IMG/VR virus record: IMGVR_UViG_2879759574_000002
DNA from: a virus
Taxonomy: Duplodnaviria > Heunggongvirae > Uroviricota > Caudoviricetes
Reading direction: 5' to 3' (one strand)
DNA: 33,428 nt
Of this stretch, positions 2,116-2,266 are shown piece after piece (position 1 is the first letter of the stretch; each line of letters begins with the position of its first letter). Below the pieces are notes generated by a model that was given only the letters and a program-made list of their open reading frames with translations, was not told where the DNA came from and did not search any database. The translations under genes and the position numbers were made by a program.

Positions 2116-2266
2116 GTGAATTTTGTGATGCGGTGCCTAGTGCCTCCAGGTGACGTTAACCAGTTAACAATTACAGTCGGCTTTCCCACCCAAACCAATA
2201 AGGACTAACATGACTTTTAACTGTGCCGCGTGCGCTTAGCCGCATTCACCGCATCACAAAATTCAC
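2116..2266. repeat. Perfect 20-bp inverted repeat pair (GTGAATTTTGTGATGCGGTG at 2116..2135, reverse complement at 2247..2266), 111-bp spacer
   Basis: Direct inspection; arms are exact reverse complements. Confidence 0.8.

Follow-up and report, generated by a model that had tools for sequence, protein, structure and literature searches.

The inverted-repeat locus

The window analysed here is a stretch of 33,428 nucleotides (nt) of viral DNA (Duplodnaviria; Heunggongvirae; Uroviricota; Caudoviricetes; IMG/VR record IMGVR_UViG_2879759574_000002), and its subject is a long inverted repeat with arms at 2114-2135 and 2247-2268. All of the features around the repeat lie on the minus strand, where the order of transcription is repressor, YdfA-like open reading frame (ORF), DicF, repeat, promoter-like site, isrK, C4 and Rha ORF; this gene order agrees with that of a dicBF-type operon. 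Together with the sequence that they enclose, the arms make up a structured RNA domain of 155 nt (2114..2268, minus strand) of a divergent STnc100 type, recognized by a match to Rfam RF02076, by its fold and by covariation.

The arms are 22 nt each and 100% complementary, with a spacer of 111 nt, and the perfect 20-bp pair of the original prediction (2116-2135 and 2247-2266), which was made from the sequence alone, is nested within them. Besides this pair, the arm sequence has no further occurrence in the 33.4-kb window. By our own simple arithmetic, approximately 33428 x 200 x 4^-20 = 6e-6 perfect repeats 20 nt or longer whose spacer is at most 200 nt are expected, and the pair had rightly been called unlikely by chance.

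Directly upstream of the repeat is a divergent DicF-type small RNA (sRNA) with a Rac-type seed, an intrinsic terminator and a U-tract (2270..2325, minus strand). The match to the DicF family (RF00039) runs from 2325 to 2275 and scores 28.6 bits, where the gathering score is 48 and DicF of Escherichia coli K-12 reaches 76.7 bits; at only 28.6 bits this Rac-type DicF goes unannotated at the Rfam threshold. The stem of its terminator extends from 2307 to 2280 and its tail, CGCCCTTTTT, reaches 2270, while the first repeat arm starts at 2268. The earlier placement of the repeat downstream of a DicF-like terminator is therefore right on the minus strand only, since the neighbouring features are all encoded there. 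The variant retains the terminator hairpin and differs from K-12 in the 5′ seed (UGCUGUGUGAAGU versus UUUCUGGUGACGU in K-12); it is also present in L003 and in L130 (8170-8232).

A scan of 1800-2900 revealed no promoter for the element itself. The sole promoter-like site (TTGAAA-17-TATAAT; 2075 to 2047, minus strand), with 11 of 12 consensus positions, is located downstream of the element, forms its downstream boundary and is positioned to drive isrK. Between the domain and this site no terminator was found, the nearest upstream signal being the DicF terminator. With no promoter-like site able to drive the element, its transcription would come from read-through of the DicF terminator.

Structure of the RNA domain

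Folding of the region, which had been suggested as a check, gave z = -5.5 for the window copy, in a structure containing the helix formed by the two arms. We refer to this helix as P1. In order, the domain comprises P1, the hairpin P1a, a pseudoknot in which helix P2 crosses helix P2b, and the hairpin P3 (CCNGG-AGGCA-CCNGG); all coordinates that follow are on the minus strand. P1, made up of the 5′ arm AAGUGAAUUUUGUGAUGCGGUG (2247..2268) and the 3′ arm CACCGCAUCACAAAAUUCACUU (2114..2135), has 22 perfect Watson-Crick pairs in the window. P1a (GCGGC-UAAGC-GC(A)CGC; 2228..2243) has a stem of 5 bp, a bulged A and a UNNGC loop; it is part of the RNAalifold consensus and is 100% paired in alignment A3, which consists of 13 diverse sequences. 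P3 (CCUGG-AGGCA-CUAGG; 2136..2150) is the most conserved motif of the family, its middle pair being U-A or G-C, a compensatory change, with a G·U pair on the minus strand only.

The 5′ strand of P2, CAGUUAA (2217..2223), has its partner at 2167-2161, that is, in the 3′ strand UUAACUG (2161..2167). The strands of P2b are GACUGUAA (5′, Rac-type; 2171..2178) and UUAACGUC (3′, Qin-type; 2152..2159). Because the 3′ strand of P2 sits in the loop of P2b, the arrangement is an H-type pseudoknot. It accounts for the direct repeat GTTAACTGGTTAAC noticed earlier in the spacer: the sequence is indeed present (2155-2168), and it consists of the 3′ strands of P2 and P2b, in that order. That this "direct repeat" is able to fold back on itself is due to the palindromic nature of GTTAAC. 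Other members have AAGGUUG/CAACCUU, GAGCUGGC/GCCAGCUU or GAACUGGCA/UGUCAGUUC as P2 at the same place, and P2b of K-12 is GGCGUUAA/UUAACGUC. In the window two of the P2b pairs are mismatched, a pattern common to L001 and L045. A Rac-type 5′ strand facing a Qin-type 3′ strand suggests, as far as the sequences go, that recombination has taken place inside the element between prophage lineages.

Covariation was counted on A3 for a structure consisting of P1 (22 bp), P1a, P2 and P3, to which P2b was later added. Without P2b, 89.7% of the cells are paired; sliding the partners 1-3 columns out of register lowers this to 33-42%. On both sides 15 pairs change, 10 of these (out of 22) within P1. The covariation score is 0.289, compared with at most 0.084 for the slid controls, and none of 500 shuffles reached the observed value. 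Addition of P2b raises the number of pairs changed on both sides to 21, with six of the eight P2b pairs covarying across relatives, and the score to 0.316; over both versions of the structure the paired cells amount to 87.7-89.7%.

The pseudoknot is also evident outside this alignment. Among 65 family members, the segment that follows P1a shows complementarity to the loop of the hairpin immediately preceding CACC-P3; the match averages 6.2 nt versus 4.7 nt for shuffled loops, and 17 of the 65 are at P <=0.05. The loop/segment pairs differ widely, examples being ACUGGAUA/UAUCCAGU, AGGCUAC/GUAGCCU and UGCUGAU/AUCGGCA. An automated test for the pseudoknot in canonical members gave a noisy result (mean z = -0.8), and the loop-complement test is the cleaner of the two. 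The Rfam STnc100 consensus contains the internal hairpin only, and no pseudoknot.

The active strand

A strand-symmetric walk along 45 distinct arm pairs, taken over their first 22 positions, counted 29 G·U against 6 A·C combinations (binomial p ~1e-4, relatedness uncorrected). The duplex of the sense strand is the more stable in 63 of 73 variants, by a mean difference of 4.1 kcal/mol; both figures come from related sequences and are indicative rather than exact probabilities. The excess of G·U over A·C points to the minus, transcribed strand as the active one. Within E. coli, arm variants are mostly transitions which yield G·U on the minus-strand RNA. At one neighbouring position pair all four C/U combinations are found, and the G-C/C-G of the window corresponds there to a tandem G·U/U·G in K-12 Qin. 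Moreover, the orientation with respect to transcription is constant in every context examined, namely before dicB, kilR, the Rha module and terB of phage P7. Of the roles offered for the repeat in the original prediction, a structured RNA is the one supported by the covariation, the strand-specific wobble pairs and this constant orientation.

These same data bear on the possibility that the repeat acts in the DNA, either by forming a cruciform or as a symmetric site bound by a protein dimer, for which GTTAACTGGTTAAC would be a second one. A long, perfect, palindrome-like pair adjoining a promoter would suit such a role, as would the palindromic GTTAAC, and a protein-binding pair had been among the first proposals. 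Neither duplex DNA nor a cruciform predicts the 29 to 6 asymmetry, however. The arms are wholly different in the Lelliottia, Klebsiella-type and L108 copies and yet retain their pairing, which is unlike a sequence-specific protein site, and in Rac (GTTGCA) and Klebsiella (GCTGCC) the second GTTAAC has disappeared, with the partner strand of the RNA helix changing to match. The two halves of GTTAACTGGTTAAC are strands of RNA helices, the second being unconserved in Rac and Klebsiella, and we regard a function at the DNA level as very improbable.

Relationship to STnc100

Under a permissive threshold the window matches STnc100 (RF02076) at 2122-2263 on the minus strand, the alignment covering model positions 21-154 of 206; at 30.7 bits (E 1.4e-4) it falls short of the gathering score, which is 47. 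Relatives lie near that threshold, L029 passing with 47.8 bits and L130 falling just below with 43.1 bits. The part of the model covering the tail and terminator (positions 155-206) is unmatched in the window. The core fold is present in full: the closing GGUG/CACC, P1a, the internal hairpin, and the CCNGG-AGGCA-CCNGG hairpin flanked by CACC. The layout of a free-standing STnc100 gene, with its own promoter and an intrinsic terminator ~25 nt past the domain, was not found at this locus (scan of 1800-2900). Among the other Rfam families, which include ribozymes, riboswitches and retron RNAs, nothing was found at E <=10 besides STnc100, DicF, isrK, C4 and obvious noise.

Scanning for the shared 3′ motif in one genome per species led to many enterobacterial loci, which fall into two subfamilies of the same architecture: P1 (GGUG/CACC), AAU, P1a, a variable region, CACC, P3 and the 3′ strand of P1. 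Canonical STnc100 (58-126 bits) makes up the "CCCCC" subfamily, and the window copy belongs to the "GCGGC" subfamily; the GGUGAAU / P1a / CACC-P3-CACC layout is common to both. Their P1a stems, GCGGC...GC-A-CGC and CCCCC...GG-A-GGG (in canonical form CCCCC-UNNGC-GG(A)GGG), are related by compensatory swaps, and L041 has an intermediate, GCCCC...GGCGC, that connects the two.

STnc100 and its relative PasD of pathogenic E. coli have been described as abundant sRNAs of late prophage regions, orphan in function. They share with the element the closing GGUG/CACC, the AAU, the 5-bp hairpin with bulged A and UNNGC loop, the internal hairpin and the CACC-CCNGG-AGGCA-CCNGG-CACC segment, and all are prophage-borne, occur in several copies per genome and are orphan in function. 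The element differs in having a P1 of ~22 bp instead of 6-12 bp and a swapped P1a stem sequence. It also lacks its own promoter and terminator and is located inside the early-left operon after DicF, whereas STnc100 and PasD are free-standing in the late region, near tRNAs, stx or an esterase gene. The element is a divergent, operon-embedded, long-stemmed and sub-threshold subfamily of STnc100, which is to say a variant of a known RNA and not a surprise at the level of principle. In the searchable literature we found no placement of an STnc100-type member between DicF and dicB, and a text search with strings of the element sequence returned only an STnc100 PCR primer.

Transfer RNA genes are often situated just upstream of family members, as in Salmonella diarizonae (L012), where two tRNAs precede STnc100, and on a Pantoea plasmid (L057), where a tRNA is followed by two tandem family copies. 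In L130 (8040-8232) and ~30 other viral loci the order with respect to DicF is reversed, an STnc100-type domain with a short P1 of 9-12 bp lying 12 nt upstream of a DicF-like sRNA. This order imitates the full-length STnc100 layout, and it is over the whole model that L130 obtains its 43.1 bits. The idea that the 3′ tail of STnc100 is itself a DicF-like sRNA, making tandem "domain + DicF" units, was rejected, the canonical tail being a generic GGCCCCUC...GAGGGGCC terminator.

Distribution and genomic contexts

A search for further copies, another check that had been proposed, was made with a 201-nt query centred on the element and gave matches in 4,632 of the 5,426 complete E. coli genomes. 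The median number of matching places in a genome is 2 and the maximum 9; of 30 places among the matches listed, 27 are unannotated. The element is found between dicF and dicB in K-12 Qin (L127, 1142-1296), O157:H7 and phage Tritos, upstream of kilR in a Rac prophage, in Klebsiella phages, and in the ban operon of phage P7 between tRNA-Thr and terB (L004, 2501-2616; AF503408.1, 72453-72568). DicF, element and dicB form one contiguous piece in 3,920 of the 5,426 genomes, K-12 Qin included.

The gene directly downstream, or cargo, was tallied for ~130 phage and prophage loci carrying this subfamily. It is dicB at ~55 loci, with a DicF-type terminator directly upstream of the element, and kilR at ~21, all but one with such a terminator. 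The isrK-C4-Rha module seen in the window is the cargo at ~10 loci, again behind the terminator. There is no DicF-type terminator upstream at the ~30 loci of the reversed order, where a DicF-like sRNA (e.g. that within L130, 8040-8232) is downstream, nor directly upstream at the ~5 loci with terB. The switch from one cargo to another falls exactly at the outer edge of the 3′ arm of P1, and the P1 arms may serve as recombination joints between modules. In at least one genome, H106 (NZ_CM177010.1), dicB is preceded by a Rha-family gene, and the homology begins inside the 3′ arm of P1.

Terminal inverted repeats, a length of ~155 bp, thousands of copies in up to 9 places per genome and the change of cargo at the very edge of an arm could be the marks of a non-autonomous, MITE-like mobile element inserted downstream of DicF, as had also been proposed. 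The flanks (CACCG|...|TAAAA, plus strand) show no target-site duplication, though, and copies occupy homologous operon positions rather than scattered ones. No empty site, that is, DicF-dicB without the element, was present in the sampled matches, each full-length one of which was a single aligned piece. All of the contexts found are prophage or phage operons with the element in the same orientation, there is no associated transposase, copy number tracks the number of lambdoid prophages, and distant copies keep the interior without long terminal repeats. Of all the explanations considered, a mobile element is the one to which we give least credence.

The length of P1 differs with context. Free-standing STnc100 members have a P1 of 6-12 bp, while in copies within lambdoid early operons it is 14-22 bp or more, with arm sequences unrelated to those of E. 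coli. The Lelliottia helix (AAGCAGGUUUUAAGGUGUGGUG/CACCACACCUUAAAGCCUGCUU) is 22 bp long, that of Scandinavium 22 bp with three G·U pairs, those of Klebsiella-type phages 14-22 bp and that of L108 20 bp; in kilR-type copies P1 is ~23 bp long and contains two wobble pairs and a single bulged A. Comparison of these sequences indicates that the long P1 helix is under selection in the operon-embedded copies.

In dicB- and kilR-type copies (e.g. L005 and L003) the predicted duplex exceeds 22 bp, with 28-32 pairs in all. In the kilR type a possible partner for the U-tract of the DicF terminator is UAAAAA, immediately upstream of the Shine-Dalgarno sequence of kilR; in the dicB type the tract can pair, by way of U·G wobbles, with UUGAGGA in the dicB Shine-Dalgarno region. 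If these modelled pairings form, they may tie together read-through, cleavage and toxic-gene translation.

Proposed processing by RNase III

An RNase III dimer accommodates ~22 bp of double-stranded RNA (dsRNA) (PMC6212723), and P1 provides the helix that characterizes an E. coli RNase III site, ~22 bp of largely uninterrupted dsRNA. As related in PMC5069750 and PMC9438474, both of which cite Faubladier 1990, termination produces a DicF of 53 nt, and the full-length dicBF mRNA, when processed by RNase III, gives one of 72 nt, i.e. 53 + 19 nt. The K-12 sequence also folds with the P1 helix. With dicF of K-12 at L127 1083-1135 and the 5′ arm of P1 at 1142-1163, the +19 end given in these accounts corresponds to position 1154, which is nt 13 of the 22-nt arm and near the centre of the helix. 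Since the reported 72-nt end, by our mapping, falls inside P1 of K-12, we infer that P1 is an RNase III site.

In our interpretation, which we consider likely, the repeat is P1 closing a ~155-nt STnc100-type RNA domain on the minus strand, and this helix would be cut by RNase III in read-through transcripts. RNA polymerase starting from the DicA-controlled early promoter would read past the DicF terminator, and only then would the domain be transcribed. P1, lengthened from the 6-12 bp of free-standing STnc100 to the ~22 bp of an RNase III dimer in operon-embedded copies, would be cut in both arms near its middle. The cut would supply a DicF 3′ end to read-through transcripts (the reported 72-nt DicF of K-12), and the double cut would set the folded domain free and part DicF from the downstream cargo, which is dicB or kilR in other prophages and an antirepressor-like isrK-C4-Rha module here.

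The likeness to K-12 Qin is close in that the dicF-dicB spacer contains the homologous element, with the cut reported in the accounts cited above, 19 nt past DicF, falling by our mapping in the middle of the 5′ arm. The window differs in its Rac-type DicF and in having isrK-C4-Rha instead of dicB as cargo, and cleavage here is putative. By analogy with K-12, we infer that the window copy is cut and that the cut affects its cargo. The putative cleavage zone in the 5′ arm is 2253..2259 (minus strand), the equivalent of K-12 DicF +19 being ~2256; in the 3′ arm, K-12 homology and a 2-nt offset place it at 2124..2128 (minus strand), the partner of ~2256 being ~2126. The passages on the 72-nt DicF in PMC5069750 and PMC9438474 describe it without the helix, the enclosed domain or a relation to STnc100.

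Several observations weigh against this interpretation. The mapping of the 72-nt end is built on the RefSeq coordinates of the 53-nt dicF and may be off by a few nt. A 2023 study stresses the RNase III-made 5′ end of a 190-nt species and leaves a 3′ cut unmentioned (PMC10448788). The sequences used for covariation are related, so that the shuffle statistics overstate their independence. With two P2b mismatches the window copy may be partly degenerate, and the surrounding prophage is interrupted by IS elements. Finally, a simple RNase III site would not require a conserved interior, and to that extent the mechanism is incomplete.

The conserved interior, which goes beyond the needs of an RNase III site, is also one of the points in favour of P1 being a structural clamp only, closing or insulating the domain in a polycistronic RNA, protecting the downstream 5′ end or compacting the leader, with no part for RNase III and with the 72-nt end arising elsewhere. 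The same closing helix, just 6-12 bp long, is present in free-standing STnc100, so closure as such is ancestral. Silencing of kilR, which is behind the Rac copy of the element, occurs by NusG-dependent termination (PMC5793797), so that the structure of the leader could affect transcription; the element is G-rich, not C-rich (G 42, C 30 of 155). Against a clamp stand the lengthening of P1 to ~22 bp, a size compatible with RNase III, with covariation and specifically in the operon-embedded copies of several genera, and the mapping within P1 of the RNase III-dependent DicF end, as it is reported. We consider a clamp without cleavage unlikely, though it is the strongest of the competing explanations.

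Somewhat less probable still, in our view, is that the STnc100-type fold is a portable, self-contained RNA machine (one that specifically binds a protein or ligand, serves as a decoy or is catalytic) that is used either as a free sRNA or, where P1 is lengthened, as a cassette excised from early operons by RNase III. The features behind this idea are P1, P1a, the covarying pseudoknot, the invariant AGGCA hairpin and the invariant unpaired GGUGAAU and CACC. If it were true, the excised RNA of ~130 nt would act in trans or gate host-toxic genes such as dicB, kilR and antirepressors.

Polycistronic RNAs of phages are punctuated by RNase III sites, among them those of the T7 early region, e.g. R1.1, and in λ the N-leader site and sib. 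There, as proposed here, a helix of about two turns lies between functional units of an early transcript, and its cleavage uncouples them and determines how stable the flanking RNA is. The T7 and λ sites are plain hairpins, in which an internal loop often restricts the cut to one strand, whereas the element has a perfect helix around a conserved, pseudoknotted domain of 111 nt. Retrons offer another likeness: the a1/a2 repeats of msr-msd are long inverted repeats around a structured non-coding RNA of ~100-150 nt, and here too such a combination is found in prophage-like DNA. Unlike in retrons, no reverse transcriptase gene is adjacent, the neighbours being the DicF-like sRNA and isrK-C4-Rha, and there is no match to an Rfam retron family.

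Control of host cell division by cryptic prophages has its classic models in the dicBF and Rac kil loci, carried by most E. coli genomes. Recognition of the "spacer" behind DicF as a conserved, pseudoknotted RNA belonging to the STnc100 family links an orphan RNA family that is among the most abundant in enterobacteria to a genetically tractable locus. P1 would give a structural explanation for the RNase III-dependent DicF species of 1990, as later accounts relate it, and offers a testable hypothesis for the uncoupling of DicF from toxic downstream genes. The Rfam STnc100 model misses a large subfamily with thousands of copies and omits the pseudoknot. The element is a functional feature of a largely known kind; its recognition is helpful to annotation, and it does not overturn current understanding.

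Neighbouring genes and other features

Upstream of DicF, the minus strand encodes an HTH_3 repressor resembling DicA (3274 to 2867) and a DUF1391/YdfA-like ORF (2665 to 2513). Between these two genes, at 2743-2799 in plus-strand coordinates, there is a 22-nt direct repeat (ATTTAGAATAACCTAAGGTGTT / ATGTAGAAAAACCTAAGTTTTT) with its copies 35 nt apart, and these are probably operators of the DicA-like repressor. Two candidate features involving the sequence upstream of DicF were discarded: a second, degenerate copy of the element at 2326-2520, for which the local alignment score was 15 against a shuffle mean of 16, and pairing of the element with this sequence (27 nt, 70% complementary), which is too weak. 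A 37-aa ORF at 2085-2198 (minus strand) was likewise rejected as coding, because the lengths of some indels that separate relatives are not divisible by three and the substitutions within helices compensate one another.

Downstream of the element, and also on the minus strand, are isrK (2040-1964; 63.8 bits), the C4 antisense RNA (1938-1851; 78.6 bits) and the Rha-family ORF (1796-1251). The region 1251-2075 is an immI-like module of the phage P1 type which takes the cargo position, behind the element, that dicB or kilR has elsewhere. The isrK-C4 pair is found also in L130, at 4878-5066. In L001 (1660-2502; NZ_CP011416.1) the coding sequence annotated in RefSeq as "Rha family phage regulatory protein" seems to have been extended upstream across C4 and isrK to an ATG just past the element. 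The N-terminus so annotated is probably spurious, because the in-frame extension crosses both RNA genes in the window (1251-2075, minus strand).

ORFs for IS3-family transposases, some of them fragmentary, are located on both sides of the immunity region (1-1130 and 4190-5394), and the prophage looks degraded or rearranged. Beyond these, on the plus strand, are four tRNA genes (5536-5843).
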